This document shows positions 23,979-59,302 of a stretch of DNA of 64,000 nucleotides, in pieces. Below the pieces are notes generated by a model, which saw only the letters and a program-made list of their open reading frames with translations, had not been told where the DNA came from and searched no databases. The DNA is from an uncultured Candidatus Saccharibacteria bacterium (GTDB lineage Bacteria > Patescibacteriota > Minisyncoccia > Phycocordibacterales > PALSA-1337). Location of the stretch: contig CAYIYK010000003.1 in NCBI GenBank assembly GCA_964367745.1, positions 10,248 to 74,247 on the forward strand. The letters are read 5' to 3'. How positions within the stretch are numbered: the first letter of the stretch is position 1; each line of letters starts with the position of its first letter. Both the position numbers and the translations under genes were made by a program.

Positions 23979-24422
23979 TTAAACCTTCGGCACCTTTATT
24001 ATAACCAACCTAGCTTTCGTAGAAGTCTTATGTTGATGTGGCTCTCCAGCAGGAATCCATAACCAATCTCCAGGTTTCATCACAACTTCTGTTCCACCCT
24101 TTATTTCTTTTGCTTTCCATTCCCTATCATCTATACTCCCATCAGCATTCTTTTTTACCCAAGGGTCTACCATTTCTCCTCCATAGATAAAGATAACTTC
24201 TCCTTCAAGACAAAACCATAGATCAGCTTCATGCTTGTGTATCTCTGCTTCATTTGAAATATTTATATCCTCCAATATATTCATAGGAACTTTATTCAAA
24301 GCAGAAAAAGCTTTTAGAGGTTCCAAAAGTTTTTTTGTTGGCGTGTCGGCACTAGGACTTGATAGAGTACTATCGATTAAATCTTTACTGATAAAAGCAC
24401 AATTTGATTTATTATTTTCCAT
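23979..24422 (-). CDS. Cupin-domain protein
   Basis: The two cupin motifs are HKHEADLWFCLEGEV and GDWLWIPAGEPHQH. Confidence 0.7.
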   Translation of the reverse strand: MENNKSNCAFISKDLIDSTLSSPSADTPTKKLLEPLKAFSALNKVPMNILEDINISNEAEIHKHEADLWFCLEGEVIFIYGGEMVDPWVKKNADGSIDDREWKAKEIKGGTEVVMKPGDWLWIPAGEPHQHKTSTKARLVIIKVPKV

Positions 24423-24431: not shown

Positions 24432-26312
24432 TTAAAATTTAAATCCTTTTTTCTTTAATTCTTTTAACATGTACTCTGTGATAATCCAATCAAGTGGATA
24501 GTCTATATCTATAGATCTCTCTTTTGGTACTATATACCCTGCAATCTTATCTCCATATAACCTCTCTTCTTTCATAATCAAATCTCTTCTCATACAATAT
24601 ATTGCTGCACTTCTCTTGTATGCTACAGGTAGATCTTGTCTTCTTGTACCTTCTACTTCAGGAACAGAATATGCACTGATGAAGTCACCTTCTAATTTTT
24701 TAATCTTAATTGGATTTACATTACTTGGTACTTCAACTATTGATACTGCACTATCTGCTTTTGTATCTATAAGTTTTTGAATTGTTCCATCGATATCGTC
24801 TATAGTTCTAAAAGGTGAAGTTGGCTGAAGAATAACTACATAGTCGATAGTGATATTATTTTTCTTTTCATAAAAATCTATTGCATGTTGCATTACAGGA
24901 AGATGTGGAGTTGAATCTAGAGCCAATTCTTTTGGTCTCATAAAAGGTACATCTGCACCATACTTCTTACACACATCGGCAATCTCTTTGTCATCTGTTG
25001 AAACGATAAGATGATTTATCAATTTACTTTTCTTTGCAGCATCGATTGTATATGCAATAAGAGGTTTATTGCCAAGTTTCTTTATATTCTTACCCGGAAT
25101 ACCTTTTGACCCTCCGCGAGCTGTAATAACGCCAAGGACGTTTGGAGTTCTGTATTCCCTATCTACATGTTCTTCTGTAAGCGGTTCAAATTTCTTTATA
25201 TCTTTTATTATTTTTTTATCCAAAATATCATGGAAAAGATTCGAGAAAATTCCATTTAGATGAAGTCTTGGTCTCATAGCGTAAACCATATCACTCGTGA
25301 TTATTGTTCCAGCTTTAATATCTCTTGAAGCAACGAGTGTTTTGTTGAAATAAGGTCTAAACTTATTTTGTGCACCTTCCAATTCTTTTTCCTTTTGACC
25401 GTAGAAAATATTTGTATCTATTTTCTTATATTCATTTTTCTTAATACCAGAGACCAATTGTTTCATTTCTTCTGGAGTTACTGAAGCTTTATGGTCTGAA
25501 CCCCAAAGGCCTCGGTCTAGAGAAAAGTGTTTCTCTATAACCTGCGCACCCATTTTTACTGCAGCTAAAGGAATAGTATTATCTCCAACTGAATGATCAG
25601 AAAAACCGATGATCGCTTGAGGGTATTTTTCTCTAAAATATTCTATAGTAGAAAGGTTAAAAGCTTCTGGAGGACATGGATATTCACTAACGCAATATAG
25701 AATAATAATTGGTGACCCACGCTTTGTTATATAGTCAACAACGTCATCCAACTCTTTGTGACTAACCATTCCTGTTGAAATGATTATTGGTTTTTGTGTC
25801 TTTGTAATAAAGTCCAAAAGAACATGATCCTGAACATCACCAGAACCTACTTTCCAGAAAGGTACATCTAGATTCTCAAGCTTAACCGCTGCCATTCTAG
25901 ACATCGGAGTTGAGAAGAATATAATTCCCTTTTTTTCTGAATATCTTTTTATCTCTTTGAAGAATTCTATAGGTGCTTCTTCAGTATTTCTTTTAACCCA
26001 AGAATATCTATCACTGCCTTTGAAGTGCGGAGAAACTACATTTATATTTGCTTGTTCATCTTCAACTTCATGAGTTTGAAATTTCACAGCATGTGCACCA
26101 GCTTTTACTGCTTCGTCGATAAGCTTTTTTGCATTTTTAATATAGACTTTTAGAGGTTGAGACTCTTGTGTTTGTATAAAATTCTTACCGATTTCAGCAA
26201 TAACAAAAACTTTATCTTTTGATATGATCTTAGAGATAGCGTGAGGTTTCACTATTTTTGAATTTTTGTTCTTACTGGCTTTAGAAGATTTAACAGACTT
26301 TTTTGTTTTCAT
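24432..26312 (-). CDS. Fused NeuB-like nonulosonic (sialic) acid synthase plus NeuA-like CMP-acid cytidylyltransferase
   Basis: NeuB blocks: VIAEIGKNF, AVKFQTH, PIIISTGM, VSEYPCPPEAFNL, GFSDHS and VIEKHFSLDR. A SAF-like segment (RDIKAGTIITSDMV) follows. From about aa 393 the sequence VLGVITARGGSKGIPGKNIKKLGNKPLIAYTI is typical of acylneuraminate cytidylyltransferases. Confidence 0.85.
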   Translation of the reverse strand: MKTKKSVKSSKASKNKNSKIVKPHAISKIISKDKVFVIAEIGKNFIQTQESQPLKVYIKNAKKLIDEAVKAGAHAVKFQTHEVEDEQANINVVSPHFKGSDRYSWVKRNTEEAPIEFFKEIKRYSEKKGIIFFSTPMSRMAAVKLENLDVPFWKVGSGDVQDHVLLDFITKTQKPIIISTGMVSHKELDDVVDYITKRGSPIIILYCVSEYPCPPEAFNLSTIEYFREKYPQAIIGFSDHSVGDNTIPLAAVKMGAQVIEKHFSLDRGLWGSDHKASVTPEEMKQLVSGIKKNEYKKIDTNIFYGQKEKELEGAQNKFRPYFNKTLVASRDIKAGTIITSDMVYAMRPRLHLNGIFSNLFHDILDKKIIKDIKKFEPLTEEHVDREYRTPNVLGVITARGGSKGIPGKNIKKLGNKPLIAYTIDAAKKSKLINHLIVSTDDKEIADVCKKYGADVPFMRPKELALDSTPHLPVMQHAIDFYEKKNNITIDYVVILQPTSPFRTIDDIDGTIQKLIDTKADSAVSIVEVPSNVNPIKIKKLEGDFISAYSVPEVEGTRRQDLPVAYKRSAAIYCMRRDLIMKEERLYGDKIAGYIVPKERSIDIDYPLDWIITEYMLKELKKKGFKF

Positions 26313-26408: not shown

Positions 26409-27347
26409 TCAAAGCCTGCGAGCGGTGACCACAACCGACGGGTGGTATGCGGTAAAGTTGAGGAGATTCTGGTCTGCCTCAAAAACGCTACGGATTCCAA
26501 TACCAACAATCTTGAGCTTGTCCTCAATCGGAAGCTTGTCGAGCGGTTCCCAACGGCACCAAGTGGCCCAGGCATTGCGAATGAAATCGACGATTCGACT
26601 CCCAACAACAGGAACGAGGGTTTCATTCACACGGAAGATCTCGAAACCATTTTGCTCGAGAGCAGACTTGAGATCAACAAGCGAGAATGCCTTTGCTTTG
26701 GGTGCCCAGAGATTTTCGCGAGTGAAATCAGGATACTTTGACCGAACATAATTGTAAGCTGCATCGTGCGCAATCCTATAAAGCGGATGCGAGAGTTCGG
26801 TTGTGATCTGATCCGGCCCCGGCTCAGACTTTGACCGGAAATCGTGCAAATTGCACTTCCAATCCGAATAATTGGACGGACCGAAGTCAAAACTGAGAGT
26901 TCCACGAACCTTGAGGCAAGAACTGATTGCTTTCAAGGAAGCATCGAGGGTATCCCGCAAAAGATGAAACATCTGACAACAGACAGCGGCGTCATGAAGA
27001 CCTACAACATGCCGATCCAGAAATTCCGCTTTCATTGTGTAAGCATTCACCCTCGGATTACCCATCAAATTGAGGAGAAGGAAATGCATCATGCTTTCAT
27101 TCGGCTCAACAGCCGAAACGAGCGCCTTCGTCCTCTTGAGAATAACTGCTGTACTGACACCAGTGCCGGCGCCAATCTCCAACACTGAATTGATTCCATT
27201 TTTGTTGGCTTGAATCGCCTCACTAACAACGAATTCAGCCATTTCAGTGTAGTATTTGTCACGACCATTGAAGGCCGAGTATGCTGCGCCGACATTCCCT
27301 TCGAAGAGTTTCGAACCGAGGATTGCACTAACATTACTTGTACTCAT
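26409..27347 (-). CDS. Class I SAM-dependent methyltransferase of foreign composition
   Basis: 312 aa. SAM motif I is VLEIGAGTGVST. The gene is about 50% GC and uses GC-rich codons, unlike its neighbours. Confidence 0.8.
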   Translation of the reverse strand: MSTSNVSAILGSKLFEGNVGAAYSAFNGRDKYYTEMAEFVVSEAIQANKNGINSVLEIGAGTGVSTAVILKRTKALVSAVEPNESMMHFLLLNLMGNPRVNAYTMKAEFLDRHVVGLHDAAVCCQMFHLLRDTLDASLKAISSCLKVRGTLSFDFGPSNYSDWKCNLHDFRSKSEPGPDQITTELSHPLYRIAHDAAYNYVRSKYPDFTRENLWAPKAKAFSLVDLKSALEQNGFEIFRVNETLVPVVGSRIVDFIRNAWATWCRWEPLDKLPIEDKLKIVGIGIRSVFEADQNLLNFTAYHPSVVVTARRL

Positions 27348-28477: not shown

Positions 28478-28507
28478 TGTCTAAGTAAATACAGTAATCT
28501 CTCAAAG

Positions 28508-28537
28508 CCCTCACGTAAAAAGCGTGGGGGTCTTTTT
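28508..28537 (+). terminator. Intrinsic terminator after the island transporter
   Basis: An 8-bp stem CCCTCACG (28508..28515) / CGTGGGGG (28523..28530) with one G-U pair is followed by TCTTTTT. It overlaps the neuC stop codon. Confidence 0.65.
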
Positions 28538-29693
28538 ATTCAACAAAAGTCTTTTGAGTATAAAGAGGTACAGTAGCTATAACCTCTGCAATCTTTTTAC
28601 TTGTACCTTCTGCAAAATATAGACTTGATGATTCGTATCTGCCTTTTTTAACTTGTTTCTCTATTGCTTTCTTTATAGCTTTAATATCATGGTCTACAGT
28701 TACTACATTTTCTGCACTCAATCTTTTGAATTGTCTATTACCAATATTCACCACAGGCAAACCCATAAAAGAAGATTCCTTTATTCCAGCTGATGAATTC
28801 CCTATCAAACATAGACTGTTATTCAATAGCCAAATAAAATCCTTTGGACCCATATATCGCATGAAGCGTATTTTATGTCCTTTAACTTCATCTTTAAAAA
28901 TTCGAAGCTCATGTGATATATCTTCTGCACCGGCATCAGCATTTGGCCAAAACCAAAGTGTTGGAATCTTTAGACTATGTACAGCATCAAGGATTTTCTT
29001 TGTATTTTCATGTACATGCTTCACATCCATAATATCAGGATGATACATAACTATTAGATATCCTTTCTTTAGATCAAAAAGGGCCCCACTTCCTGTTTTC
29101 TTTATATCGAATTTATGTTTATTTTTTGCTAATTTTTGTACAACTTCTATTTCTGGACTACCAAAATTGAAAACGTGAGATTCTCTTTCTCCAAGTCTCA
29201 ATACTCTTTTTCTTGCTGGTTCATTTGTTGTAAAGTGAATATGAGAAAGTTTTGTGATAGCGTGTCTTACACTTTCATCTATTGATCCAGATACATCACC
29301 ACCTTCTATGTGTGCGATAGGTATAGATAAATATGCAGCTGCAATTGTAGCTGATAGAACTTCAAATCTATCACCTCTTACCACAACGACATCAGGTTTA
29401 ATCTGATTAAAAAGTGTAGTGAATTCTATTATTCCTAGTCCTGTTGTTTTTGCTTTTACGATTGTATCATTCCCTTCTAGATTGAAATGTAGTTCGTATA
29501 GCTTGTTATATCCGTCTTCCGTCAAAAGTTTTCTTATATCAGCAAGTTTTGAAGTATAACGAGACAATAAAGCTGTACCTCCAACTATTATATGTAGGTC
29601 AATATCCTTTCTTTTCTTTAGTTCTTCTAGAATAAGAAAGTTACGACTATAGTGTATGAAACTTGTAATAACAAAGCAGACTTTTCTCTTCAT
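28536..29693 (-). CDS. neuC: Hydrolysing UDP-N-acetylglucosamine 2-epimerase (NeuC-type)
   Basis: 385 aa. PDVVVVRGDRFE and IAHIEGGDVSGSIDESVRHAITKLSHIHF match the NeuC / hydrolysing-epimerase pattern. Confidence 0.8.
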   Translation of the reverse strand: MKRKVCFVITSFIHYSRNFLILEELKKRKDIDLHIIVGGTALLSRYTSKLADIRKLLTEDGYNKLYELHFNLEGNDTIVKAKTTGLGIIEFTTLFNQIKPDVVVVRGDRFEVLSATIAAAYLSIPIAHIEGGDVSGSIDESVRHAITKLSHIHFTTNEPARKRVLRLGERESHVFNFGSPEIEVVQKLAKNKHKFDIKKTGSGALFDLKKGYLIVMYHPDIMDVKHVHENTKKILDAVHSLKIPTLWFWPNADAGAEDISHELRIFKDEVKGHKIRFMRYMGPKDFIWLLNNSLCLIGNSSAGIKESSFMGLPVVNIGNRQFKRLSAENVVTVDHDIKAIKKAIEKQVKKGRYESSSLYFAEGTSKKIAEVIATVPLYTQKTFVE

Positions 29694-29696: not shown

Positions 29697-30680
29697 CTAG
29701 CTAATATGCAGTATTTTTCGTAAAAATGCAAATCTATTTGAATACTTTATTATGTATATTATTTTAACCAAGATTGGTGATAGTGATACGCGCGCTTTAA
29801 GATAAATATTCTTCGGAATTTCTATATCTTTTGATAATGTATCCTTCCTTGCAACCAAACGTATATGGTGGGTATTCAATCCATCTTGTTTTTGCTTCTT
29901 TATTTGTTCTTGCTTTTTACCTTCATCAACATCCATATAGACGATTACGAAACCTGCTTTTTTACACATTAAAGAAAGTGTCTCTGGTGTAAACATATAG
30001 ACATGGTCAATCTGCACTCCAGACTGAAGCTTCCCCATTCTTCTAACTTGATGTCTCCAGTTTTTCACTGCAAGGAAAATATGACCACCTGGTTCCAGTG
30101 CTTCATGTGACCAATTTAGGAATTTCATTGGATCTAAAAGATGGTTCAAACTTTGAACACAAAGAATATTTTTTACTTTATTCTTAATATCCATATTCAC
30201 ATCTTCAAAAAGCCCGCGAATAGTCTTTACGCCTTTTGATTCTGCATAACCCGATTCTTCAAGCGAAGGTTCAATACCTAGCAGTTCTAGATTTTTCCTA
30301 GATTCCCTCATACCAAAAAGGATTCCACCAGTACTTGAACCAACGTCGATAGTAAGTCCGTCTTTTACATATTTACCCATATAACTGACTATAGCCTTAC
30401 CGAATCTTCTAGCATTCTCGAAGTTCTTCTCTAGATCAGAATTGTATTCACGATTCTTTATACTAGCTCTATCTTGTCTATAAAAAGACATATAGTATTC
30501 ATCATAATCTTTTGCAGTCATACGTGGGTTAATAAAGACTAGACTGCACTTCTTACACATTACTGTATTTGCTTTGAGATTGTTTACACTTCTTTTAACA
30601 ATTATTTTAAAATCATTTCCACCACAAAGATTACATGCGATGTATTCTAAATTCTTTTTATTATAATCAAATCCTTCCAT
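29697..30680 (-). CDS. Zn-ribbon class I SAM methyltransferase (paralog M1)
   Basis: CNLCGGNDF...CKKCSLVFINPRMT forms a 4-Cys ribbon. The SAM motif is TIDVGSSTGG. QIDHVYMFTPETL is shared with M2. Confidence 0.8.
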   Translation of the reverse strand: MEGFDYNKKNLEYIACNLCGGNDFKIIVKRSVNNLKANTVMCKKCSLVFINPRMTAKDYDEYYMSFYRQDRASIKNREYNSDLEKNFENARRFGKAIVSYMGKYVKDGLTIDVGSSTGGILFGMRESRKNLELLGIEPSLEESGYAESKGVKTIRGLFEDVNMDIKNKVKNILCVQSLNHLLDPMKFLNWSHEALEPGGHIFLAVKNWRHQVRRMGKLQSGVQIDHVYMFTPETLSLMCKKAGFVIVYMDVDEGKKQEQIKKQKQDGLNTHHIRLVARKDTLSKDIEIPKNIYLKARVSLSPILVKIIYIIKYSNRFAFLRKILHIS

Positions 30681-30681
30681 T

Positions 30682-32040
30682 TTATTTAATTAAATTAATT
30701 ATATAATCTGCAATTCTCTTTCCTGATAAACCGTCTGTATAACTTGTCTGTTCTTTTACCAAGATCTCTCTTTCTTTACTCTTTACTGATGGATCATCAA
30801 GATATTTATTTATTGAATCCAATAACTCTTGTTTGCTATTAACTAGATCGATAGCACCGGTCTTTAATGCATTCTTATAATGCCAAGTTCTATAGTATTG
30901 TACAGGAGATTTCAATAATTTTGGAATTATATTTATTTCAAAATTTATATTTATTACAGGTTTATTAAAAATACTTGCATCGATACTAATACTTGAAGCA
31001 TAGCAAACCAAAACAGACATATGATAAAGAGTATCCTGCAAATGTTCTAGATCTGCTTTATTCATATCCCAATCTACACCTCTTTTTGTACCAAAACGTA
31101 TACCAGGCTTATCATATTTTAGATCTGGTCTCTTTGATATTTCTTCTTCATCAACAAAGTCATTTGGTTGGAATCGGACCAATAATTCACATTCGTATTT
31201 CAATTCATTTGAGTGAATAGTTTTTTGCAAAAGGTCGATTATATCCCAATCTGCAGAACTGAACGCTCTCCCCATTGGAGCGTATACTATCAATTTCTTA
31301 TCACTTGATATTTTTATTTTATTAAAAAATTCTTCTCTTAAAATAGGTTTCCTTGTGTAGAAGAAATCGTATTGTGGCAGACCGCTGATAAAAATATCTT
31401 CCGATTTCATTTCATTCAAATCAATCATCTCCTTTTTTACGATATCGTTAAAAACTATAGCTTTATCAGGTAATAATCTTAAAATGCATCTTGATGTAAC
31501 TTTGTCCCAAGAGTTTATATAGCCTATCGTTTTTATTTTTCTTTTTTTTGCTTCTCTTAAAAGATTGATTTCTATTTCTTCAAATAGATGTGCGGTGAAA
31601 ACAAGATCTGGTGAATATTTATCAAAATATTCACTATATGTATTGTCTTTTATTAAAATAAAATCCAAATATCGTACGATTCTTCTTATCACAGGCCAAG
31701 CCAAAATATAGTTCGATACTTTACCAAAATAGTATCCGAAAAATCTTCCTTCATATTCACTTACCATTTTCCTTTTTAAATCTGTTGTTTCAGTTCTAAG
31801 TAAAGTGAATTTCATCTTTGAGAAAAACCCATCAAACATTGGTACAGATTTTTGCTCGACAAATTCAAATACTATTCTTGGATCATTGAATTCATTTTTA
31901 TAATAATCAACTTTTTGTTGTGATTTTGTAAATAGAACAATTTTAATATCTTTATTTAAAAGAAGATTTTCCAAAATCGGTGTTCGTAGAATATTTTTTA
32001 CTTCTACACCCTCAAAGATTGTTACAAATATTGTCTTCAT
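30682..32040 (-). CDS. Uncharacterised GT-B-like transferase (paralog P1)
   Basis: 452 aa. It shares blocks with P2 and P3: IKTIGYINSWDKVTS, LLVRFQPND and FNKPVININF. The overall layout is that of a two-Rossmann-domain GT-B. I did not recognise the family. Confidence 0.6.
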   Translation of the reverse strand: MKTIFVTIFEGVEVKNILRTPILENLLLNKDIKIVLFTKSQQKVDYYKNEFNDPRIVFEFVEQKSVPMFDGFFSKMKFTLLRTETTDLKRKMVSEYEGRFFGYYFGKVSNYILAWPVIRRIVRYLDFILIKDNTYSEYFDKYSPDLVFTAHLFEEIEINLLREAKKRKIKTIGYINSWDKVTSRCILRLLPDKAIVFNDIVKKEMIDLNEMKSEDIFISGLPQYDFFYTRKPILREEFFNKIKISSDKKLIVYAPMGRAFSSADWDIIDLLQKTIHSNELKYECELLVRFQPNDFVDEEEISKRPDLKYDKPGIRFGTKRGVDWDMNKADLEHLQDTLYHMSVLVCYASSISIDASIFNKPVININFEINIIPKLLKSPVQYYRTWHYKNALKTGAIDLVNSKQELLDSINKYLDDPSVKSKEREILVKEQTSYTDGLSGKRIADYIINLIK

Positions 32041-33365
32041 TTATTTATTGATTCTAGTATTGCATTAAAAAGTCTTTCAGTATTTTTGCCATCCAAAAAT
32101 CCAGTTTCCATCTCTGCTAGTTTCTTTCTTTTATCTTTATCCAGACTAGGATTTTTAACGTATTCTTCTACATAGTCTTTAAATTGACGCATAGATTCAG
32201 CCAGCTTCACACCTCCACTCTCTATTACTGGAATAAAATTGTTATAATCATAATATCTTCTTATACTATCAAAATATTCCCTTTTTTCATGTCCGTCAAA
32301 ACCAAAAAGGATTATTGGTTTATCCATATATGCAGAATCCAAAACTAAAGTTGATGGTGAGCTGATAACCAATTCTGACCAGAACAATGTATGAGCAAGA
32401 TGTATATCATCATCTTTATCGATCTCTGTAATTTTTATATTATCAAATTTAGGTTTTGCTCTGTCATACATAACCTTAATATTTGGAAACTTCGGACTAT
32501 TCTCCAATTCTCTAACATAATCTCCAGGTGGAAGTCTGACTAGAAGTTGATAATCATTTGGTAAAGTCTTATCCAAAATATCTACAATATCTCTGTCTAC
32601 AGTATTTTTTCTCAAATATCGATCACCTAGAGGTATAAATAAAGCCAGCTTTTTATTCTGATCACCACCTATTTTTTCTATAAATTCTTTTCTATTTGTA
32701 AATACATTCTTTTTATAATCATCATAGTGTGGAATTCCGACAATAGATATTATTGATTCATTTATTCCTTGAAGATCTTTTGCTTCATCTTTAATGATAT
32801 TGTTCCAAACAAAAAGTCTATTCGGAATCGTTCGAATGATACCTTTTGAAGTAAGATTGTCCCAAGAACGAACCATACCGATAGTCTTTATACCTGAGGA
32901 ATTACCTTCATTTAAAATCGCTATATCGATTTCGCTTTGAATATCGGTAGCGAATACGCAATCAGGTTTATACTGCTCAAATAATTTATCAAATTTTTTA
33001 TTTTTATAACTTACTCTTTCCAAGAATCTTACGAATTTATGCCCGATTTTATTTGATAATAAATAAGTTAAATACATTCCACTCCCTTTCATCTCTGTCT
33101 TCCTTTTTATATAAAGAGTTTTTGTATTTAATGCTGTTAGCGAAAGATACTTTAATAAATTTTCTCTTTTAGCATTTTTAAATTCTATTCCTTCAACAAC
33201 TACCCCATCTCTTTCAAAACTTTCTTTAAAAAAACTCTCTTTATTTTTTGGAGCAATTATTACAACTTTTATTTCATTCTTAACAAAGAGATCCAAAATT
33301 CCAGATGAAAGAATATTTCTTGATATTAGAGGATGGCAACTAGTTATAAAAATTGTCTTTTTCAT
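32037..33365 (-). CDS. Uncharacterised GT-B-like transferase (paralog P2)
   Basis: 442 aa with IKTIGMVRSWDNLTS, LLVRLPPGD and MDKPIILFGF. It overlaps P1 by 4 nt. Confidence 0.6.
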   Translation of the reverse strand: MKKTIFITSCHPLISRNILSSGILDLFVKNEIKVVIIAPKNKESFFKESFERDGVVVEGIEFKNAKRENLLKYLSLTALNTKTLYIKRKTEMKGSGMYLTYLLSNKIGHKFVRFLERVSYKNKKFDKLFEQYKPDCVFATDIQSEIDIAILNEGNSSGIKTIGMVRSWDNLTSKGIIRTIPNRLFVWNNIIKDEAKDLQGINESIISIVGIPHYDDYKKNVFTNRKEFIEKIGGDQNKKLALFIPLGDRYLRKNTVDRDIVDILDKTLPNDYQLLVRLPPGDYVRELENSPKFPNIKVMYDRAKPKFDNIKITEIDKDDDIHLAHTLFWSELVISSPSTLVLDSAYMDKPIILFGFDGHEKREYFDSIRRYYDYNNFIPVIESGGVKLAESMRQFKDYVEEYVKNPSLDKDKRKKLAEMETGFLDGKNTERLFNAILESINK

Positions 33366-34312
33366 TATCTTTTAAGGAATTGCTGTAGACGTACTGTAAG
33401 TAAATATCTTAAATAAATATAATATTTGTTTATTGATAATAAAGTAAAAATATAATTACCCTTACCTATTGTTAAATCCTTGAAGGGGGTTTTATTCAAT
33501 CTTTTAGCCACAATGCGAATATGTACTTTTGGAATTCCCTGCATGACCTTCTTTTTTGTATATTCATTAGCTTCAAAGAAAAGGATTTCGAATCCAGCTG
33601 ATACAATGAAATCTCTCAAAACCTCAGGTGTATACATATAGACATGGTCGATCTTTACACTATTTTCATACTTTCCTGCTTTTTGTAATTGCTGTCGAAA
33701 ATTCATAACTTCAACTACAAGAAGTCCATTATCAAAAAGAGACTCGTGAGCCCATTTGAAAAAATATCTAGGATCCAAATAGTGATTTAAAGCTTGAGTA
33801 CTGACTATAACTGCGAATTTTTCTTTTTTATTATGATCTTCGATTAGAGCATGATAAGTCTTTATTCCTTGAGAATTCGCATAATCTGATTCAATCTTTG
33901 ATGGCTCAAGACCAATTACTTCTCTATTCAAAAATCTTTTCATTCCTTCCAAAACTCCTCCGACACCAGAACCGACTTCCATTATTGAGCCTTTTACTTT
34001 TAGATATGGTGATATAAGCTCACCCAAGAATTTGCCGTGTCCGATGGTTGATTCGAACAATTTCTTACAATCAAAATCTGAACCTGCTTCGCCATTGTTT
34101 ATAGTTTTTTGTCTGTATTCTTCTTCATAATAGAATTTGTAACCAGACTTTGTCATTCTAGGATTTATATAAATAAGCCCGCATTTTTTACAAATAACAG
34201 AATTCAAAGCAAGACCATCAGTGCCTTTTTTTGACAGGATTTTATAATTGTTACTTAAACAGAAACTGCAAGCAATATTCTCCTTTTCAATTGTATTGTA
34301 TGGGAAAGACAT
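33365..34312 (-). CDS. Zn-ribbon class I SAM methyltransferase (paralog M2)
   Basis: I moved the start to ATG 34312 (MSFPYNTIEKENIACSFC), which aligns with the M1 N-terminus. CSFCLSNNY...CKKCGLIYINPRMT, MEVGSGVGG and KIDHVYMYTPEVL are present. Confidence 0.8.
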   Translation of the reverse strand: MSFPYNTIEKENIACSFCLSNNYKILSKKGTDGLALNSVICKKCGLIYINPRMTKSGYKFYYEEEYRQKTINNGEAGSDFDCKKLFESTIGHGKFLGELISPYLKVKGSIMEVGSGVGGVLEGMKRFLNREVIGLEPSKIESDYANSQGIKTYHALIEDHNKKEKFAVIVSTQALNHYLDPRYFFKWAHESLFDNGLLVVEVMNFRQQLQKAGKYENSVKIDHVYMYTPEVLRDFIVSAGFEILFFEANEYTKKKVMQGIPKVHIRIVAKRLNKTPFKDLTIGKGNYIFTLLSINKYYIYLRYLLTVRLQQFLKR

Positions 34313-34383
34313 TTTATGATAAACAAGTATATCACAACAAAATATTGCTTCAATTAAGATTAAATTCTGATATACTGTCTCAA

Positions 34384-35520
34384 ATGGAAATAAAAATCGA
34401 TAAGGTCGCAAATCTAAGTGGCTGGAAATCATATACAGTAGACAATACTAATGATTTTATAACTATAAATGATTGCTTGTGTTGCAAAGGAAAACTAAAA
34501 GTTACAATTCGAAATAAAAATCAAACAGACGATACAAAGATTGATATTGGAACTTGTGTAAATTGTGGTTTTACAACCTATATTAATAAACCAAGTCACA
34601 AATGGATTATCGATTTCTACAATTCAACTTGGAATAAAGAAGAGGGTGAAGAGAATAATTTTGTAAATAAAGATCTACAATCTAGCAAACTAACAATAGC
34701 CCTAGAAAAAATAAATTTCCCAAAGAATGGTTCAATATGTGAAATCGGCACAGGAAGAGGCGGTAACTTTGCTGCGCTTATAAATAATGGTTATAACAAT
34801 CTTATTGGTGTAGAGAATTCAATACACAGAGCTGATACAGTGAGTAAAGCTCTAAATGATGTTCCTATATACACAGGAGGTTTTGAAGAAGAAAAAGTAC
34901 AAAATGCTCTAGCGAAACATGGAAGTTTCGATTTGATATACACTGCTCATGTAATGGAACATATTTATAATCCTGAAGAGACTATTGAACTATGTTCAAA
35001 ACTTCAGAATGAAAATGGTCATTTGATAGTCGCTGTGCCGAACTTCGTAGGTGAACCTAGTATAGGTATTTCTTCTTTCCTTCCCCATTTACATTCTTTT
35101 ACAAAAGAATCGATGATAAGACTTTTGAATAATAAAGGGTATCAAGTTATAGATGATAGTTACACTACAGAGTTTGAATTGTTTCTTATTGCTCAAAAGA
35201 AAAGTAATATTAATAAAAAACTAGATAATAAGACTGATTATATAAAACCTGCTCAAGACAAATTTATTAAAGAATTAAAATTGAATGAAATTCCCCTAAA
35301 TCAGTCTGTATTCTATTTTTTCTCTAAGAAAAATTATTCAGTATCTGGATATAAAATACTAAATAAAATATCAATAATAAAAACAATTCAAGCTATGTTT
35401 TTCAAATTCATTCAAAGAAAAAAAGGTTATAGATCTTTCGTATTTACTTTGATGAATAAAGATAAAAATCAACCAATTGTATTGAATTGGAAGAAATCTA
35501 TTATTCTTTTCTATAAATAA
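34384..35520 (+). CDS. Zn-ribbon class I SAM methyltransferase (paralog M3, divergent)
   Basis: The track start at 34231 is a TTG that overlaps M2. I moved it to ATG 34384 (MEIKIDK). CLCCKGKL...CVNCGFTTYINKP, CEIGTGRGGN and HVMEHIYNPEE are present. Confidence 0.75.
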   Translation: MEIKIDKVANLSGWKSYTVDNTNDFITINDCLCCKGKLKVTIRNKNQTDDTKIDIGTCVNCGFTTYINKPSHKWIIDFYNSTWNKEEGEENNFVNKDLQSSKLTIALEKINFPKNGSICEIGTGRGGNFAALINNGYNNLIGVENSIHRADTVSKALNDVPIYTGGFEEEKVQNALAKHGSFDLIYTAHVMEHIYNPEETIELCSKLQNENGHLIVAVPNFVGEPSIGISSFLPHLHSFTKESMIRLLNNKGYQVIDDSYTTEFELFLIAQKKSNINKKLDNKTDYIKPAQDKFIKELKLNEIPLNQSVFYFFSKKNYSVSGYKILNKISIIKTIQAMFFKFIQRKKGYRSFVFTLMNKDKNQPIVLNWKKSIILFYK

Positions 35521-36471
35521 TTAGAAATTATAGAATTTCGGCTCCTTCTTTATCTTATTTGAAACTGCGATTTTAGCTTCATTAGATAGTCCATTTGTAT
35601 CTAGTGATTTCGGATATTTATATAGTATAGGCCAAACAGATGCTGGAGAAGTGTATACACTTGTATACATGAATCTATTACTTGTCTTTGCATGACCGCC
35701 TCTATGCAAACCGCTTGTATCGCAGAATATTATTGTTCCAGCTTTACCTGTACACACAATTTTGTCTTCATTAGGAATTAAGGAATCCTGGCTTGCACTA
35801 CCTCGTGGTGGCTGTTGTGGTGATATATGTCTCCATTTACCGAAGATATGAGACTTTTTAACATAAATAAAAGGGCCAGCATTGTCATCAACATCATTTA
35901 GATAAAGGAACACTTTTACAAGTTGTTGATCTTCAGGATCTCTGTGCCACTCTTGTGATGCGTAACTTCTCATTCCTTCAGGCATAGGTACGGTCACTTG
36001 GAATCTCCAATCAAAAAACTTCATATACATTTTCATATATGCATTCACTGTTCCGAGAATTTGATTACTCAGACTCATTTTGGTGAGAGGATGTTTTAGA
36101 TCCAATATTCTCTCTCCATTCCAAAGATCGATCAAAAAGAAATTCTTACTTTTCAACTTGTCACCATCCAATAGATTACCTCTAGAGTCGTATCTTTCTT
36201 TAACGTCTTTATCATTCCATCGATTCTGTGCAATCTTCTCCAATTCAGCATATACGTGCTTTGGAAAAAGTTTATCGATATGACTTATTGCAATACCGTC
36301 TCTATTTAGATCTTCGACGATTTTCTTCTGTTCATCTGACAATTTATTTTCACTCTTTTTATAAAGTCTAATACTTGAGATATTTAGTAGAGTCCAGACA
36401 AATCGACTTGCTCTGATGCGATGATAAAAACGTGCGATTATACCTATAACACTTTTTATTATTTTCTTCAT
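35521..36471 (-). CDS. PhyH-like Fe(II)/2-oxoglutarate dioxygenase
   Basis: EWHRDPED ... FLYLNDVDDNAGPF ... GTIIFCDTSGLHRGG match the phytanoyl-CoA-dioxygenase-family pattern (the HxD and distal His). Confidence 0.7.
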   Translation of the reverse strand: MKKIIKSVIGIIARFYHRIRASRFVWTLLNISSIRLYKKSENKLSDEQKKIVEDLNRDGIAISHIDKLFPKHVYAELEKIAQNRWNDKDVKERYDSRGNLLDGDKLKSKNFFLIDLWNGERILDLKHPLTKMSLSNQILGTVNAYMKMYMKFFDWRFQVTVPMPEGMRSYASQEWHRDPEDQQLVKVFLYLNDVDDNAGPFIYVKKSHIFGKWRHISPQQPPRGSASQDSLIPNEDKIVCTGKAGTIIFCDTSGLHRGGHAKTSNRFMYTSVYTSPASVWPILYKYPKSLDTNGLSNEAKIAVSNKIKKEPKFYNF

Positions 36472-36478
36472 AAATAAA

Positions 36479-37828
36479 TTAAATAATTTTTCCTAAAAAA
36501 TCGACATTTCTCTTATAAGACAAACCGTCTCTAAAGAAAATAAAATCATTGAATACTTTCTCTTGTTGCTTCTTTTTTACATCGTGATTTTTCAAACAAA
36601 TATTAACATGTTCAACGATATTATCGAAACTCTTTGAGAGAAAAACTGCATCAGCATCTACTATAGGTTTATAGTGACGGAAATTGTATGCTCTATGATA
36701 CTTTTCTGGATAATCTATATTTACAACTGGTTTTCCGAAGATAAAAGATTCAAGGGTCATTGTTGAAACGTAGTTTATAACTACATCAGAATATTTTAGA
36801 GTTAATTTTAGATTCAAAATATCATCTTCATGTATTTCAATTCTTGTACCCATTTCTTGTGAAAGTAACTTGCCTGGATATTCAACATGGAGATTTGGAA
36901 TTTTACTATCAATATATACTTTGAACTTATCAAACTCTTCTTTTGGATGCATTCGCACTAGAATATTGGGTTTACCATCGAATTTGCCTTGATCACGAGC
37001 TTTCAATAGTTCACCAAGAAGAATATCTTCATCAGGGTAATTCCCCTTTGTAACTGTAGTTATAAGTATTGTTTTTTCTTTTGGATTCAATCCTTTACTC
37101 AAAAGGAACGCTTCTCTAGACTGTTCACTTGGATTGTTTACAGAATAAGAGTCGAAACGCATTGTACCTGAGACAAATACATTATCTTCTGAATATCCAT
37201 ATTCTTTAACTGCGGTATTTTTTATTATTTTATTCCAAACGATTAGATAATCTGGTCTTCTAAAATGCATTCCTCCATTGTGAAGATTGTCCCAACTGAA
37301 GTTTACTGCAGCAGTCTTTATACCAAACTTCTTAGCATATATTATTGCTTCAGCATCAGGATGACTGAAGCCAGGAGTTGCTGTTAGAAACATAACTGGG
37401 TTGTATTCTTTAATCTTTTCTTCAAGAGCCTTTGATCTTGGTATAAAAATTTTCTCAAGTTTAGTAAATAAATCATTTGTCCAAAAAGATGCAGGGGCAA
37501 TGTAAGAAAAATACTTCAAAAATCTTCTTCTCCAATCCTTCATCCCCTTTTCTTTATTTCTTACAACCACTGGTTCAAAATCGTATTTACGGATTATTGA
37601 ATATCTAAAATATTTACCAAATAGATTCCAAAATCCTGGATTTTGTAATTTCCAAGGAACATAAGTCACATTTTCTGATTTAAAATATGGTTTATTATCT
37701 TCACAAAAAGCTTGTGGGGACATAAATACGACTACTTTGTATTTTGTTGATAAATACTTTATATAATCTGTACGCAAAAAATCTGATGAGTAAACAAAGT
37801 TCGAAATAAAAAGAAATATTGTTTTCAT
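36479..37828 (-). CDS. Uncharacterised GT-B-like transferase (paralog P3)
   Basis: I moved the start to ATG 37828 (MKTIFLFISNF), which matches the P1 and P2 N-termini. IKTAAVNFSWDNLHN, ILVRMHPKE and FGKPVVNIDY are present. Confidence 0.6.
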   Translation of the reverse strand: MKTIFLFISNFVYSSDFLRTDYIKYLSTKYKVVVFMSPQAFCEDNKPYFKSENVTYVPWKLQNPGFWNLFGKYFRYSIIRKYDFEPVVVRNKEKGMKDWRRRFLKYFSYIAPASFWTNDLFTKLEKIFIPRSKALEEKIKEYNPVMFLTATPGFSHPDAEAIIYAKKFGIKTAAVNFSWDNLHNGGMHFRRPDYLIVWNKIIKNTAVKEYGYSEDNVFVSGTMRFDSYSVNNPSEQSREAFLLSKGLNPKEKTILITTVTKGNYPDEDILLGELLKARDQGKFDGKPNILVRMHPKEEFDKFKVYIDSKIPNLHVEYPGKLLSQEMGTRIEIHEDDILNLKLTLKYSDVVINYVSTMTLESFIFGKPVVNIDYPEKYHRAYNFRHYKPIVDADAVFLSKSFDNIVEHVNICLKNHDVKKKQQEKVFNDFIFFRDGLSYKRNVDFLGKII

Positions 37829-37873: not shown

Positions 37874-38992
37874 ATGAAAAAGCCTATTCTGCTACTCTGG
37901 ATAATTTCATCATGGATTCTCTATCCTTTTTTTAGTCTATCTTCAAAAATTAAGAGTAAGAAACTAGGTAAAAAGAAAAGGATACTTGTATTACCTCAGC
38001 TTTCTAGAATTGGGGACATCGTCTGTTCTACAGGCGTATTTTATAACATAAAAAAATCATATCCTGATAGTTATGTATCTGTACTAGTATCAAAGAGAGC
38101 ATTTGGAATTATAAAAAACAATAAAAGAATCGATAATTTTATTATTTATGAAGACTATTCTTTTTTTGGTTTAATAAATAAAATTAAATCAGAGAATTTT
38201 AACTATTCAATAAACCTCACAGCAACATCAATAAATACATGTTTAACACTTTGGAGTTGTATAGATCACAGAATAAAGACTGTGGTAGAAAATCCCCCGA
38301 TTACTGAGAGACTAACTGATTGTATGTCTAATCATCGATTGTTATACAAGAATCATACGTATTTACCGCTTCATCATATAAAGTTGTTGAATTTTATTGG
38401 AATAAATAATCCTGAAGATAAAAAAGAAATCTGGCTAAGTGATACAGCAGAAATAAAAGCGAATGATTTTGTTAAAAATCTTGGAGAAAATAAGAAAATA
38501 ATTGGAATAAGTATAACCGCAGGAAATAAAATAAAAGAACTCGGTGATGAGAGATTTGAAAAATTAATAAATAAACTATTAGAAAATAAAGAAAATATTG
38601 TTTGTTGTATAGGATCAAAAAACGATTCAGAAAGAATAGATAAAATAATATCAAGCGTAAATAATCCTCGTTTCATTAAAGCAACAGATTTTAACTTGGA
38701 AGAGTTACCATCTCTTATGAAAAGATTCTCACTTTATATAGCAGTTGATACAGGCCCTATTTATATCGCACATGCTCTGGGAGTACCTCTAATAGACATA
38801 ATAGGTCCAGTAGATCCGGATGAACAACCACCAAAAGACAGTAAGAGTATACGAATTCTTCCTAGAGGAGATATTAAGCCTAGTTCATTTGTATTTAAGA
38901 GACGTGGAACTCAAGATGAAATCATCTCAGCAATACAAAATACTGATATAAACGATATCTATAAAGCAGCAAGTATACTATTGAGTAAGTAG
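37874..38992 (+). CDS. Glycosyltransferase family 9 (heptosyltransferase-like)
   Basis: 372 aa. VDTGPIYIAHALGVPLIDIIGP matches the GT9 C-terminal signature (DSGPMHLAAALGxP..LFGP type). Confidence 0.75.
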   Translation: MKKPILLLWIISSWILYPFFSLSSKIKSKKLGKKKRILVLPQLSRIGDIVCSTGVFYNIKKSYPDSYVSVLVSKRAFGIIKNNKRIDNFIIYEDYSFFGLINKIKSENFNYSINLTATSINTCLTLWSCIDHRIKTVVENPPITERLTDCMSNHRLLYKNHTYLPLHHIKLLNFIGINNPEDKKEIWLSDTAEIKANDFVKNLGENKKIIGISITAGNKIKELGDERFEKLINKLLENKENIVCCIGSKNDSERIDKIISSVNNPRFIKATDFNLEELPSLMKRFSLYIAVDTGPIYIAHALGVPLIDIIGPVDPDEQPPKDSKSIRILPRGDIKPSSFVFKRRGTQDEIISAIQNTDINDIYKAASILLSK

Positions 38993-40366
38993 ACCGTATC
39001 TAACAAACCATCCTCGAACTATTGATATTCCCTTTCGAAGGATTATTTTATCTTCTTCTTTGAAACCAAAGATAATTTTAAAATCAAAATGGAATCCTTT
39101 ATCCTGATTTTTTGTGTATATATAGTTTGCAATAACCATAATTAAAGGTACGAGTACAAATTCAAGAGACAATCCCCAAAGACCGATAATTGGTAGGGTA
39201 GAAACGATGAGACCAAGAGTCAAACTATTTCTTAATAGATGTAGAAAGAAAAGGTATTTTTGTTTTCGTAGTGCTATGAGATAGTTGCCGATTATGATTC
39301 CACTTGCAAATATTGGTAAATTCAAGAGCATAAAGTAGAACAATGGTATTGATTGTGCGTATTTTGAGAAGAAAGTATAGACGACTGGTGGCACGACAAC
39401 AATCGCTGATATAACCACCAATATACTTCCAAGTACAAAATATTTTATTCCATAAGAAAACATTTTTACCGATAGATGTTTGTCTTTTATCCAAAGTGGT
39501 ACGAGAGATTGCATTGTATTACTTGGAATTAGATCTTGAATAGTTGTAACAATAGTCTCTGCGATAGAATATATAGCCACTGCTTCTGTGCCAATGAAAA
39601 GTTTAACCAGCCAAGGTTTAACCCTGAAAGTTATTTTATTTATAAATTGTCGAAGCACATCCCAAGTACCATAGGTGGTGAAAATATTCCACAACAATAC
39701 ATTTGGAGTAGCTACAATATGACTCCATTTGAAATATACCTTGAAGAATTGATATGAAACTGCCAAAACACTGAGTGATGAAGCGATGATTATAGATAGT
39801 ATCAATTGTTTCAAACCAAGATTGCCTTGCAGGAAATAATAAATAAGTACAATAGATTGAATAGCTTTATTTATAGTATATCTCTGAGCAACTACTGAGA
39901 ACTTCAATCTGACTAGACATAGTAATCGTATAAGAACGAACAATCCTTCACTCAAAATCACAAAAGAAATCATTCTCATATCTTTTACGAAATCGATATC
40001 GTAAGATTTAAAGAAGTAAACTGAACCGAAGAATATTATTGCCCAAGCAATGAAAGTTATAACTATTCTAACCAAAGAATATTCTAAGAAAATTCTCTTT
40101 GCATCACTAAGTCTATTGTCAGCAATTGCTCGAGACATTTCATTTGAGATAATAGCTGAACCAAGATTCAAAACATCAGACGGTACACCTGAAAAAGAAA
40201 GTAGGAGTTGGAATACACCGTACTGATACAGGGTAAGAGATGTAATGGTTAAGAATGTATTCAATAGACCTATTGCCTTTGTCACAAGATTCCAAAAGGT
40301 TGAAATAGCTTCCCCTTTTAAGAAAATAGCCATAAATGACGGCTTTTTTTGAGTATTTGTATCCAT
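38978..40366 (-). CDS. wzx: Wzx-like MOP-superfamily polysaccharide flippase
   Basis: 462 aa with about 12-14 TM helices. Size and topology are typical of polysaccharide biosynthesis flippases, and the gene sits in a glycan cluster. Confidence 0.7.
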   Translation of the reverse strand: MDTNTQKKPSFMAIFLKGEAISTFWNLVTKAIGLLNTFLTITSLTLYQYGVFQLLLSFSGVPSDVLNLGSAIISNEMSRAIADNRLSDAKRIFLEYSLVRIVITFIAWAIIFFGSVYFFKSYDIDFVKDMRMISFVILSEGLFVLIRLLCLVRLKFSVVAQRYTINKAIQSIVLIYYFLQGNLGLKQLILSIIIASSLSVLAVSYQFFKVYFKWSHIVATPNVLLWNIFTTYGTWDVLRQFINKITFRVKPWLVKLFIGTEAVAIYSIAETIVTTIQDLIPSNTMQSLVPLWIKDKHLSVKMFSYGIKYFVLGSILVVISAIVVVPPVVYTFFSKYAQSIPLFYFMLLNLPIFASGIIIGNYLIALRKQKYLFFLHLLRNSLTLGLIVSTLPIIGLWGLSLEFVLVPLIMVIANYIYTKNQDKGFHFDFKIIFGFKEEDKIILRKGISIVRGWFVRYGLLTQ

Positions 40367-40425
40367 AACTCAATATACTATCATAAATTGTGATAACCAT
40401 ATATAATCTTAAAAAATACAATTTT

Positions 40426-41814
40426 ATGAAAAATATATCCAAAAAGGCTTTCATTATCATATTTTTAATAATCGTATCCGTAAATTTCCTTTATGCTATA
40501 TCATATAAAATAAAACCAGCTGTAGATGCTGAAGCATATGATGAAATAGCGACAAATATCGTTGAACACGAACAGTACAGATCGAGCTTTAACGTTCCTC
40601 TAGAACTTGATGGTTCAATATCAAGAATCGGTCCTGGATATGAATTGTTCTTAGCTACAAATTATCTATTCTTTGGAAAACATTTTTGGATTATTTGGTT
40701 ATTCCAAGCAATACTTTATGCTTTGACTATTGTAATGCTTGGCTTGATGAGTCTAAAGTTATTCCCTGTTTTAAATCAAAACACAAAAATCCTTTATGGT
40801 TCGATGATTGTCTTTGGTCTACTTATCGATATTATTCAGTTGAATGCAATGATAATGACCGAATCCCTTTTCCTATTTCTTCTAACTCTTTCTTTCTTTA
40901 TTTGGTCACAAATTTACAATCATGATCCAAAGATAAAATATGGACTGTGGATTATCCTTGGTTTCGTCTTGGGATTGTTAACCCTTACAAGACCAACAGG
41001 TCTTCTAGTTTTTGTTTTATTAAGTGGAGCAACTATATATAGGAAAAAACTTGGTTCAATACTTGCAATATGCCTTATTGCTATTCCTTTTATCTTAATC
41101 CAAGTTCCTTGGTTTGTAAGAAATTATCATGTATATAATCAATTCATTTTTCACTCTAGTGCTGATGGTCTGAATTTCTTAAGTGGCAACTATCCCGGTA
41201 ATCATGGAGAATTTACTTCTGATTTCCCTTTTTATAAAGAATTAAAAGAGAAATACCCATCCCCAGTAGAATTAAATAGTGAAGCAAAGAAGTGGTATAA
41301 AGATTTTGTATTACATCACCCTATTCAAGCTACAAAAATACTAATTGAAAAAGCTTTAATATTCTTTTCACTTACCAAAACTTCTGGCTTTTGGTTCCAT
41401 TATTTTGGAAAGACTGATCAGATACTTACGATCCTCATATCAATATTTCAAAACTTTATAATACTTGGAAGTATTATATTGTATGGAACGATGGTTGTTA
41501 AAAGATGGATAAATAAACAATTCCTTCTACCAGACATATTCCTTGCTTCAACTTTTGTAGTATTAACAGTAACTCCAATAATTTCAGTTATAGCAAATAG
41601 ACATAGACTTCCACTAGTTATAATGTCTCTGCCTTTATTCGTCTATGTTGCATATATAATAAAAAATAACTTTAGAAAAATGAAATGGGAAATCGCTATT
41701 ACGATTCTTATCCTTATCGCAAGTACAGGTTTTGATCTATTCTTACAATTCGATAAATTCAAATCAAAGATACATTCAGTGAATAAAAATCCAGCAGAAA
41801 CAGTAACTAAATAA
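40426..41814 (+). CDS. GT-C fold membrane glycosyltransferase (ArnT/PMT, GT39/83-like)
   Basis: The track start at 40390 is a GTG; ATG 40426 (MKNISKKAF) is more likely. The acidic first-loop motif is DAEAYDEIA, followed by multiple TM helices. Confidence 0.65.
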   Translation: MKNISKKAFIIIFLIIVSVNFLYAISYKIKPAVDAEAYDEIATNIVEHEQYRSSFNVPLELDGSISRIGPGYELFLATNYLFFGKHFWIIWLFQAILYALTIVMLGLMSLKLFPVLNQNTKILYGSMIVFGLLIDIIQLNAMIMTESLFLFLLTLSFFIWSQIYNHDPKIKYGLWIILGFVLGLLTLTRPTGLLVFVLLSGATIYRKKLGSILAICLIAIPFILIQVPWFVRNYHVYNQFIFHSSADGLNFLSGNYPGNHGEFTSDFPFYKELKEKYPSPVELNSEAKKWYKDFVLHHPIQATKILIEKALIFFSLTKTSGFWFHYFGKTDQILTILISIFQNFIILGSIILYGTMVVKRWINKQFLLPDIFLASTFVVLTVTPIISVIANRHRLPLVIMSLPLFVYVAYIIKNNFRKMKWEIAITILILIASTGFDLFLQFDKFKSKIHSVNKNPAETVTK

Positions 41815-41817
41815 TTT

Positions 41818-44240: not shown

Positions 44241-44603
44241 ATAGATAAAGTAACTACTGATAGCAAGTAAACCTGAAGCTAGTATTTGACTTAGGAAATA
44301 GTGAATATGGAAGTGATCTACAAATAAATACATTAAAAGTGTATTCACACCAAGATTTACGCTTGAGACAATAAAATAAATAGTTGTTTGTTTGTGAACA
44401 TCTTCGATACTTTTATCCTGAAATGTCCAGAACTTTTGCAATATAAAACTAACAGAGAATGCTATTAGGAAAGCAAGAATTGCTGAAATCAAATAATTTA
44501 TCTTAAAAATATCAACAAAAATAGCTAGGAAGGCCAAGTTAACAACCGCTGCAGTTCCACCAGATATTATATATTTTATTGTCTTAATTATTTTGGTTCT
44601 CAT
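44172..44603 (-). CDS. gtrA: GtrA-family membrane protein
   Basis: 143 aa with 4 TM helices. YIISGGTAAVVNLAFLAIF ... SFILQKFWTF is the GtrA pattern. Confidence 0.8.
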   Translation of the reverse strand: MRTKIIKTIKYIISGGTAAVVNLAFLAIFVDIFKINYLISAILAFLIAFSVSFILQKFWTFQDKSIEDVHKQTTIYFIVSSVNLGVNTLLMYLFVDHFHIHYFLSQILASGLLAISSYFIYSRFIFKNNAVVSTFDNQNKDNS

Positions 44604-57441: not shown

Positions 57442-57442
57442 C

Positions 57443-57467
57443 AAAAAACACCCTATGGGTGTTTTTT
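57443..57467 (-). terminator. Intrinsic terminator directly after pilA
   Basis: AAAAAACACCC-tat-GGGTGTTTTTT is a perfect hairpin with a U-tract on the minus strand. It ends 1 nt before the downstream ATG. Confidence 0.7.
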
Positions 57468-57975: not shown

Positions 57976-58015
57976 AACGAAATAATTAACTTAATAAATA
58001 AAACTAATAATTCAA

Positions 58016-58044
58016 CTTATACACGTAAGTATATCAAACCTCAA
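58016..58044 (-). promoter_or_regulatory. Sigma-70-type promoter for pilA
   Basis: On the minus strand: TTGAGG (58044..58039), a 17-nt spacer, then TATAAG (58021..58016). Confidence 0.45.
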
Positions 58045-59294: not shown

Positions 59295-59302
59295 ATAAAA
59301 TA

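Follow-up and report, generated by a model that had tools for sequence, protein, structure and literature searches.

How does a nonulosonic acid (NulO), once activated with cytidine monophosphate (CMP), reach the glycan of a bacterium in whose glycan gene cluster no conventional sialyltransferase can be recognized? The question is raised by a 64,000-nucleotide stretch of contig CAYIYK010000003.1 (hereafter the window; G+C content ~31%) from the genome of an uncultured member of the Patescibacteria, of Parcubacteria type, in which genes for NeuC and a NeuB-NeuA fusion stand beside three paralogous genes, P1, P2 and P3, and three methyltransferase genes, M1, M2 and M3. Transferases for bacterial NulOs other than sialic acid are poorly known (PMC5420450, PMC6137143). 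A first-pass annotation, made from the letters alone, proposed the P proteins as candidates for the missing ulosonyl transferase. This proposal gains weight from three results described below: the relation of the P proteins to the BFO_1060 family, a natural fusion of a P3-type domain to NeuA, and the lack of any Pfam sialyltransferase-family match among the cluster open reading frames (ORFs) scanned. We consider it probable (roughly 0.6) that P1-P3 are CMP-nonulosonate transferases built on a TagF scaffold, whose classes would serve different acceptor positions and of which P2 and P1 would work together.

A TagF-type fold in three paralogous proteins

All six P and M reading frames were confirmed in an ORF map, and every P and M sequence block quoted in the first-pass annotation was found. 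The three P genes lie on the minus strand and encode predicted transferases of TagF fold that are distinguished by one motif: P1 (30682-32040, 452 aa) has LLVRFQPND and represents the Q-class, P2 (32037-33365, 442 aa) has LLVRLPPGD and represents the P-class, and P3 (36479-37828, 449 aa) has LVRMHPKE, thereby keeping the histidine of the VRxHP pattern, and represents the H-class. The P3 frame extends to a GTG at 37873; since its homologs begin at MKTIF, the start was taken at 37828. P1 and P2 share 30% identity over their full length (BLASTP E 2e-61), P1 and P3 share 25% (6e-29), and P2 and P3 share 26% (3e-20). AlphaFold models (pLDDT, the predicted local distance difference test, 93-96) have a glycosyltransferase-B (GT-B) fold with TagF-like features, on the branch that holds the 2-epimerases, TagF and TarL, so that the paralogy and the GT-B layout proposed earlier are both borne out. 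The fold resembles TagF and TarL at just 12-17% identity in structural alignments, and a Foldseek search of the PDB returned generic GT-B matches only, with template modelling (TM) scores of ~0.5.

The P proteins had been described as an unplaceable candidate for a new family, and this description is not supported. P1 and P2 score 41.9 and 34.2 bits against Pfam PF04464 (Glyphos_transf, the family of TagF, TagB and TarL), above its gathering threshold of 22.1 bits; P3 scores 17.9 bits, below the threshold, and most P3 homologs bear a precomputed PF04464 match. Public records already give their orthologs the name 'CDP-glycerol glycerophosphotransferase family protein' (CDP, cytidine diphosphate). 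In the same comparison, the sialyltransferase families of the Pfam/CAZy type (GT38, GT42, GT52 and GT80) gave no Pfam match to the P proteins at E<=0.1. When a 67-sequence profile of the P family was compared with PDB sequences, the C-domain of TarL was the sole match (E 4e-6), with the conserved C-terminal block of the family (DGxSxxR) aligned to TarL residues 448-559; a profile of the three P sequences gave nothing at E<=1. P2 also matches the NCBIfam model of TarL (E 5e-5), and TarB is among the sequence matches of the P proteins.

For all three proteins, the best NCBIfam match is NF046086, the BFO_1060 family, with 52.7 bits for P1 (E 3.6e-14), 47.8 for P2 (E 1.1e-12) and 82.5 for P3 (E 3e-23). 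BFO_1060 is the counterpart in Tannerella forsythia strain 92A2 of Tanf_01245 and TFUB4_00887, two TagB-domain proteins of 442-445 aa that are encoded beside a locus for CMP-activated pseudaminic (Pse) or legionaminic (Leg) acid (Tomek et al. 2017, PMC5420450). Their deletion removes the terminal Pse or Leg derivative from the protein O-glycan, and in strain UB4 the transferase gene is separated from the biosynthesis locus by a methyltransferase gene (PMC5420450). The P proteins are of nearly the same length (442-452 aa), share the GT-B/TagB-type domain and, in P3, the HP motif, and their genes likewise adjoin CMP-nonulosonate genes, both in the window and in related loci (neuA in 44/54). They differ from the BFO_1060 family in their scores (48-82 bits against a curated cutoff of 200), in their occurrence in Patescibacteria rather than Bacteroidota, in forming three co-occurring classes per locus, two of which have Q or P in place of the HP histidine, in the existence of P::P and P::NeuA fusions, and in lacking a D/E-D/E-G motif. 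A TagB-like nonulosonate transferase having been published (PMC5420450), the earlier suggestion that transferases of this kind would be new is not supported. TagB/TagF-fold nonulosonate transferase candidates and PF04464 are thus known already; no description of the patescibacterial P family, with its three classes, two of them without the histidine, and its P::P and P::NeuA fusions, was found in the searchable literature. Nothing relevant on sialic, pseudaminic or nonulosonic acids in Patescibacteria or the Candidate Phyla Radiation came out of the literature searches, and a search that paired nonulosonic acid with glycerophosphotransferase was likewise empty.

The likeness to TagF, TarL and TagB (PF04464; PDB 3L7I, 8VA1) consists in the membership of P1 and P2 in the Pfam family, in the C-terminal block aligned to TarL and in a donor that releases CMP, which for the P proteins is proposed. 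In contrast to these enzymes, the P genes are linked to CMP-ulosonate synthesis and not to CDP-glycerol or CDP-ribitol synthesis, and just one P class has the C-domain histidine. Multidomain and tandem versions are found in the P family as among the TagF-like capsule polymerases (Bcs3, 8A0C; Cps3D, 8QOY). The polysialyltransferases of GT38 (5WC6), the GT80 and GT52 enzymes and WaaA of GT30 (2XCI) are structurally farther from the P proteins than TagF, TarL or the epimerases are, and unlike them the P proteins have neither a match to their Pfam families nor the D/E-D/E-G motif.

No transmembrane segment was found in P1, P2 or P3. In each of them, a helical insert of the N-domain is basic (net charge +5 to +13) and rich in aromatic residues; it could contact the membrane, and the proteins are probably cytoplasmic, membrane-peripheral GT-B enzymes of the TagF/TagB superfamily. 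The family is large: in a profile search of 1.84 billion representative sequences, the number of clusters recovered was 2,045 with a limit of E<=1e-30 and rose to 11,081 with E<=1e-3.

Gene linkage and natural fusions across Patescibacteria

We collected 80 species-level loci with P1 orthologs, all from Patescibacteria, and used the 54 among them that span 15 kb or more to score linkage by tblastn with the window proteins within 10 kb; the statistics are therefore anchored on the P1 class. A neuA gene was found near the P1 ortholog in 44/54 loci, neuB in 41, neuC in 37, a 2-hydroxyacid dehydrogenase gene in 28, an M-type methyltransferase gene in 25 and a Wzx flippase gene in 17, and at least two P paralogs were present in 42. 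In the full set, neuA occurs in 56 of the 80 loci. By a rough estimate, as opposed to a computed control, one or two neuA genes in a genome of ~1 Mb would fall within a given 21-kb interval in a few percent of cases. The genes recur as a string, P(P-class)-P(Q-class)-M-NeuB/NeuC-NeuA-2HacidDH-WzyC_TPR, and the same partners were seen in contigs of Harrisonbacteria and Sungbacteria and, for distant P3-type homologs, in the surroundings of two out of three. The association of P, M and neu genes, named earlier as something to check in related genomes, is present in many of them. P homologs with names all come from Patescibacteria of Parcubacteria/Paceibacterota type; many metagenome-assembled genomes with the Parcubacteria-type locus (L005-L084) are titled 'uncultured Candidatus Saccharibacteria bacterium', a label that looks generic or wrong.

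This linkage bears on the possibility that the P proteins are true TagF/TagB phosphotransferases, which would transfer an alditol- or sugar-phosphate from a CDP donor to make a teichoic-acid-like segment, with the neu genes as mere neighbours. The only cytidylyltransferases regularly linked to P genes are of the CTP_transf_3 (CMP-ulosonate) type. A TagD-type HxGH cytidylyltransferase appeared in only 3 of the 80 loci and not in the window, in a motif search and a tblastn search with an approximate TagD query, both confined to TagD; set against neuA in 56/80, this scarcity is moderate evidence only against a CDP-glycerol route. The PF04464 scores of P1 and P2, the sequence matches to TarL and TarB, the name borne by the public annotation and the resemblance of tandem P-P proteins to the multidomain capsule polymerases all speak for phosphotransfer, and teichoic-acid-like polymers would be in keeping with the monoderm-like nature of Patescibacteria. 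However, the top family match is BFO_1060 and not TarL or TarB, one P3-type protein is fused to a CTP_transf_3 domain, and the VRxHP histidine, equated with TagF H548 from alignment offsets, is missing from two of the three classes. We consider this explanation unlikely; if it were correct, the locus would be an ordinary teichoic-acid-like module.

The fusions carry the argument from neighbourhood to single polypeptides. In P0231 (692 aa), encoded at 3478-5556 of locus L004, a P3-type domain of full length is fused to a CTP_transf_3 domain with 51% identity to the NeuA domain of the window. P0241 (897 aa) contains IVRLPPTD followed by LVRFQPND and is thus of P2::P1 type, and a 925-aa ORF from Niyogibacteria (L048, 8543-11320) has a P2-type and then a P1-type domain, in the order of the overlapping P2 and P1 genes of the window. 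Together with the ORFs at L060 8885-11356 and L072 8969-11356, those of L004 and L048 represent the P3::NeuA, P2::P1 and GT-A-like::P1 types, the GT-A-like domain (without a Pfam match) having been judged by eye. Several more two-domain P proteins were found; P0287 combines a P domain with a polysaccharide deacetylase, P0320 combines three P domains with a GT4 domain, and no methyltransferase was found among the extra domains of the fused P proteins. Each fusion comes from a single assembly, so a frameshift or assembly artefact is possible for any one of them; because they recur, the fusions are probably real.

Some of these arrangements would also suit ordinary GT-B glycosyltransferases that use a sugar activated with uridine, guanosine or deoxythymidine diphosphate (UDP-, GDP- or dTDP-sugar) to build the glycan backbone, leaving nonulosonate transfer to another, unrecognized protein. 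P domains are fused to GT-A-like and GT4 domains, and some P-rich loci are devoid of neu genes and instead hold genes for an NTP_transferase and a sugar dehydratase. Such a role is at odds with a homology that points to the CMP-releasing branch (PF04464, TarL, BFO_1060), with the strong linkage to neuA, neuB and neuC and the NeuA fusion, and with the lack of an alternative sialyltransferase-type protein among the cluster ORFs scanned. We regard it as distinctly improbable.

Many related loci (L001, L002, L015, L016 and L087 among them) hold two neuB and two CTP_transf_3 genes, which suggests that some of the organisms may make two ulosonic acids; this would fit the presence of several P classes. 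A KdsC-like HAD phosphatase is encoded in L002 and L085, and L085 has SIS-domain genes too.

Histidine, glutamine and proline classes and the proposed mechanism

Residue conservation was counted in an alignment of 363 P-family members, with P3 numbering. D180 of the SWD motif, the invariant residue of the N-domain, is kept in 362 members, G221 in all 363 and D226 in 361. In the C-terminal half, R292 is kept in 360, P295 and S355 in 352 each, D434 in 359 and R440 in 357, and position 422 is an arginine in 354 (P3 itself has Q). D180, G221, D226, R292, P295, D434, R440 and position 422 are candidate active-site residues.

Position 294, the histidine of VRxHP, behaves differently: it is H in 193 members, Q in 115 and P in 34. 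The earlier observation that P3 alone of the three window proteins keeps the histidine of the (K/R)xHP pattern, P1 having Q and P2 having P, is correct, and the distribution over the 363 members shows a division that runs through the whole family rather than decay of single copies. To judge from the titles of PDB variants and from alignment offsets, as distinct from a superposition, this histidine would be the counterpart of TagF H548. The catalytic histidine of the N-domain is H444 in TagF and H300 in TarL.

We propose that the P proteins were re-purposed from CDP-alditol to CMP-nonulosonate donors, both of which release CMP. NeuC, NeuB and NeuA would together produce a CMP-activated nine-carbon ulosonic acid resembling N-acetylneuraminic acid (Neu5Ac), and the neighbouring GT4, GT2 and GT9 enzymes would build a lipid-linked oligosaccharide. 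Each P class (H, Q or P) may then transfer the nonulosonate to a different position on this acceptor, with P2 and P1 acting as a pair, and the Zn-ribbon methyltransferases, which are dependent on S-adenosylmethionine (SAM), may methylate the nonulosonate or an adjacent residue. The finished glycan would be flipped by Wzx and ligated to a surface acceptor by the Wzy_C/TPR protein. Homology, fold, linkage and fusions are the observed basis of this scheme, from which the donor, the acceptors, the site of methylation and the final carrier are deduced.

Several observations weigh against this assignment. The P proteins do not reach the curated NF046086 cutoff and so are not members of the BFO_1060 family, and the T. 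forsythia precedent itself is genetic only (PMC5420450). In Bacillus subtilis, SpsB, a TagB-like candidate encoded beside a legionaminic acid pathway, is dispensable for the transfer of Leg. P1 and P2 are without the HP-motif histidine that TagF-type enzymes and sialyltransferases use, and the sialyltransferase motif D/E-D/E-G, searched as [DE][DE]G, is absent from all three P proteins. About 20-30% of the loci have no neu genes within 10 kb, and one locus (L086) has three P genes with neither neuA nor neuB nearby. Finally, the top structural matches of the P models are 2-epimerases and not transferases. Alternatively, the P proteins would be no transferases at all; they would resemble 2-epimerases or hydrolases in function and work upstream of NeuB, with nucleotide sugars as substrates. 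Such a function is very improbable: Pfam Epimerase_2 gave no match at E<=0.1 to P1, P2 or P3 of the window, the adjacent neuC gene codes for a genuine NeuC, the DGxSxxR block aligns with TarL, and epimerases do not typically come as three to four paralogs in one locus or as tandem fusions.

If the P proteins do use CMP-nonulosonates, thousands of candidate enzymes would be gained and a widespread automatic annotation corrected, and many Patescibacteria, which are episymbionts with tiny genomes, would be seen to spend resources on a surface glycan that is methylated and sialic-acid-like and may be of consequence for contact with the host. A bolder version, which we put forward tentatively and regard as rather doubtful, would make the P family the main CMP-nonulosonate glycosyltransferase family of Patescibacteria, comprising 2,000 or more clusters (at 50% identity) that are mislabelled as CDP-glycerol glycerophosphotransferases and falling into three co-inherited classes, with H, Q or P where the HP motif once had its histidine. 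P2 and P1, which are fused in some cases, would then form a two-site enzyme building a NulO-containing repeat or a di-NulO cap, methylated by the dedicated Zn-ribbon methyltransferases. That would amount to a new glycosyltransferase family with a non-canonical, histidine-less catalytic apparatus in two of its three classes. The H, Q and P classes and the P2::P1 and P3::NeuA fusions provide concrete constructs for testing.

Methyltransferases and the surrounding glycan island

M1 (29697-30680, minus strand), M2 (33365-34312, minus strand) and M3 (34384-35520, plus strand, divergent from M2) were described earlier as three Zn-ribbon methyltransferases with four cysteines. The ribbons are present in all three, as CxxC pairs at residues 16-19 and 42-45 in M1, 15-18 and 41-44 in M2, and 31-34 and 58-61 in M3. 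M1 is closely paralogous to M2 (40% identity, BLASTP E 4e-70); M3 is just a distant relative of both (19-23%, E 1e-5 to 2e-7). In Pfam, the M proteins match generic class I methyltransferase families only (Methyltransf_23, E 2e-13 for M1 and 3.5e-14 for M3). With TcaB9-type sugar C-methyltransferases they share an N-terminal four-cysteine zinc ribbon, which we take to be present in TcaB9, and, after it, a SAM methyltransferase domain of class I. Unlike TcaB9-type enzymes, M1-M3 have no detectable Methyltransf_13 zinc-binding or Methyltransf_14 C-terminal domain in Pfam, and their match to TcaB9 structures (3NDI, 4E2X) is weak and confined to the methyltransferase core (E 5e-7 to 4e-4). M1 orthologs with names all come from Patescibacteria, several apparently from the same contigs as P1 orthologs. 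The conserved position beside P and neu genes ties the M proteins to the pathway without revealing their substrate.

The minus-strand order M2-P2-P1-M1-neuC, as given in the first-pass annotation, is correct and tightly packed: M2 and P2 overlap by 1 nt and P2 and P1 by 4 nt, and gaps of 1 nt and 3 nt separate P1 from M1 and M1 from neuC. The M2 frame extends to 34432, and alignment with M1 favours 34312 as its start. A strong hairpin terminator with a 10-bp stem (28507-28531, plus strand) stands between the convergent neuC and EamA genes. Because of the 1-4 nt overlaps and gaps and this terminator 3' of neuC, the five genes look like one operon, with M2 first and neuC last. A promoter scan returned fewer sites than shuffled controls, and its result was not used.

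NeuC (28536-29693, minus strand), a hydrolysing 2-epimerase of UDP-N-acetylhexosamine, scores 342.7 bits against the NCBIfam NeuC_NnaA equivalog TIGR03568 (cutoff 235.9) and matches Epimerase_2 with E 4e-68. The NeuB-NeuA fusion (24432-26312, minus strand) joins a nonulosonate synthase (NeuB, E 4e-66) to a CMP-nonulosonate synthetase (CTP_transf_3, E 1e-27). Its NeuB domain falls below both the NeuB and the PseI equivalog cutoffs of NCBIfam; no dehydratase or aminotransferase of a Leg or Pse route was found among the window ORFs scanned.

A Pfam scan of the cluster ORFs outlines a glycan island of ~35 kb. It holds a 748-aa protein that combines Wzy_C (O-antigen-ligase-like) with C-terminal TPR (20711-22957, minus strand), a candidate ligase or O-oligosaccharyltransferase that terminates the conserved module in several lineages as well. 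Next come a 2-hydroxyacid dehydrogenase (22993-23940, minus strand), whose gene belongs to the recurrent order NeuA-2HacidDH-WzyC_TPR, and a cupin that weakly matches a DUF386/YhcH-like domain (23979-24422, minus strand); supply of a glyceroyl- or lactyl-type substituent is one possible role of these two in the nonulosonate pathway. The NeuB-NeuA fusion, a methyltransferase, an EamA transporter, NeuC and the P/M block follow. Between M3 and P3 lies a PhyH-like Fe(II)/2-oxoglutarate dioxygenase (35521-36471, minus strand; PF05721 at 23.2 bits, with the cutoff at 22). In related loci, PhyH-like ORFs adjoin an M-type methyltransferase in 6 of 11 cases, which suggests a pair that hydroxylates and then methylates the sugar or its N-acyl group.

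Past the P/M block, the island continues with a GT9-type glycosyltransferase (37874-38992, plus strand) that is divergent from P3; a GT9 gene adjoins H-class P genes in 8 of 32 cases in related loci. Then come a Wzx-type flippase with a Pfam match to Polysacc_synt (38978-40366, minus strand) and, at 40390-43476, a pair of large membrane proteins, of which one matches PMT_2 (GT-C-type) weakly and the other has no Pfam match. GT2 enzymes, GtrA, two methyltransferases and a run of GT4 enzymes follow. The cluster ORFs scanned include Wzx and Wzy_C/TPR but no ABC transporter, so that a capped oligosaccharide or a Wzy-type repeat fits at least as well as a homopolymer. The SAM methyltransferases of the island other than M1-M3 are the three just listed (26409-27347, 44600-45289 and 45286-45879), one of them TylF-like; with M1-M3 this makes six and points to a heavily methylated glycan.

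Directly past the GT4 block, a TraG/TrwB/VirD4-like coupling ATPase with HerA/DUF87-type domain matches is encoded at 53949-55823 (minus strand), and its gene adjoins a 522-aa ORF without a Pfam match (55876-57444). Type IV pilus genes follow at 57496-62507; they code for two T2SSE ATPases, for a T2SSF protein and for a pilin in which an N_methyl motif is present. The pilin or another surface protein may be the glycan acceptor.

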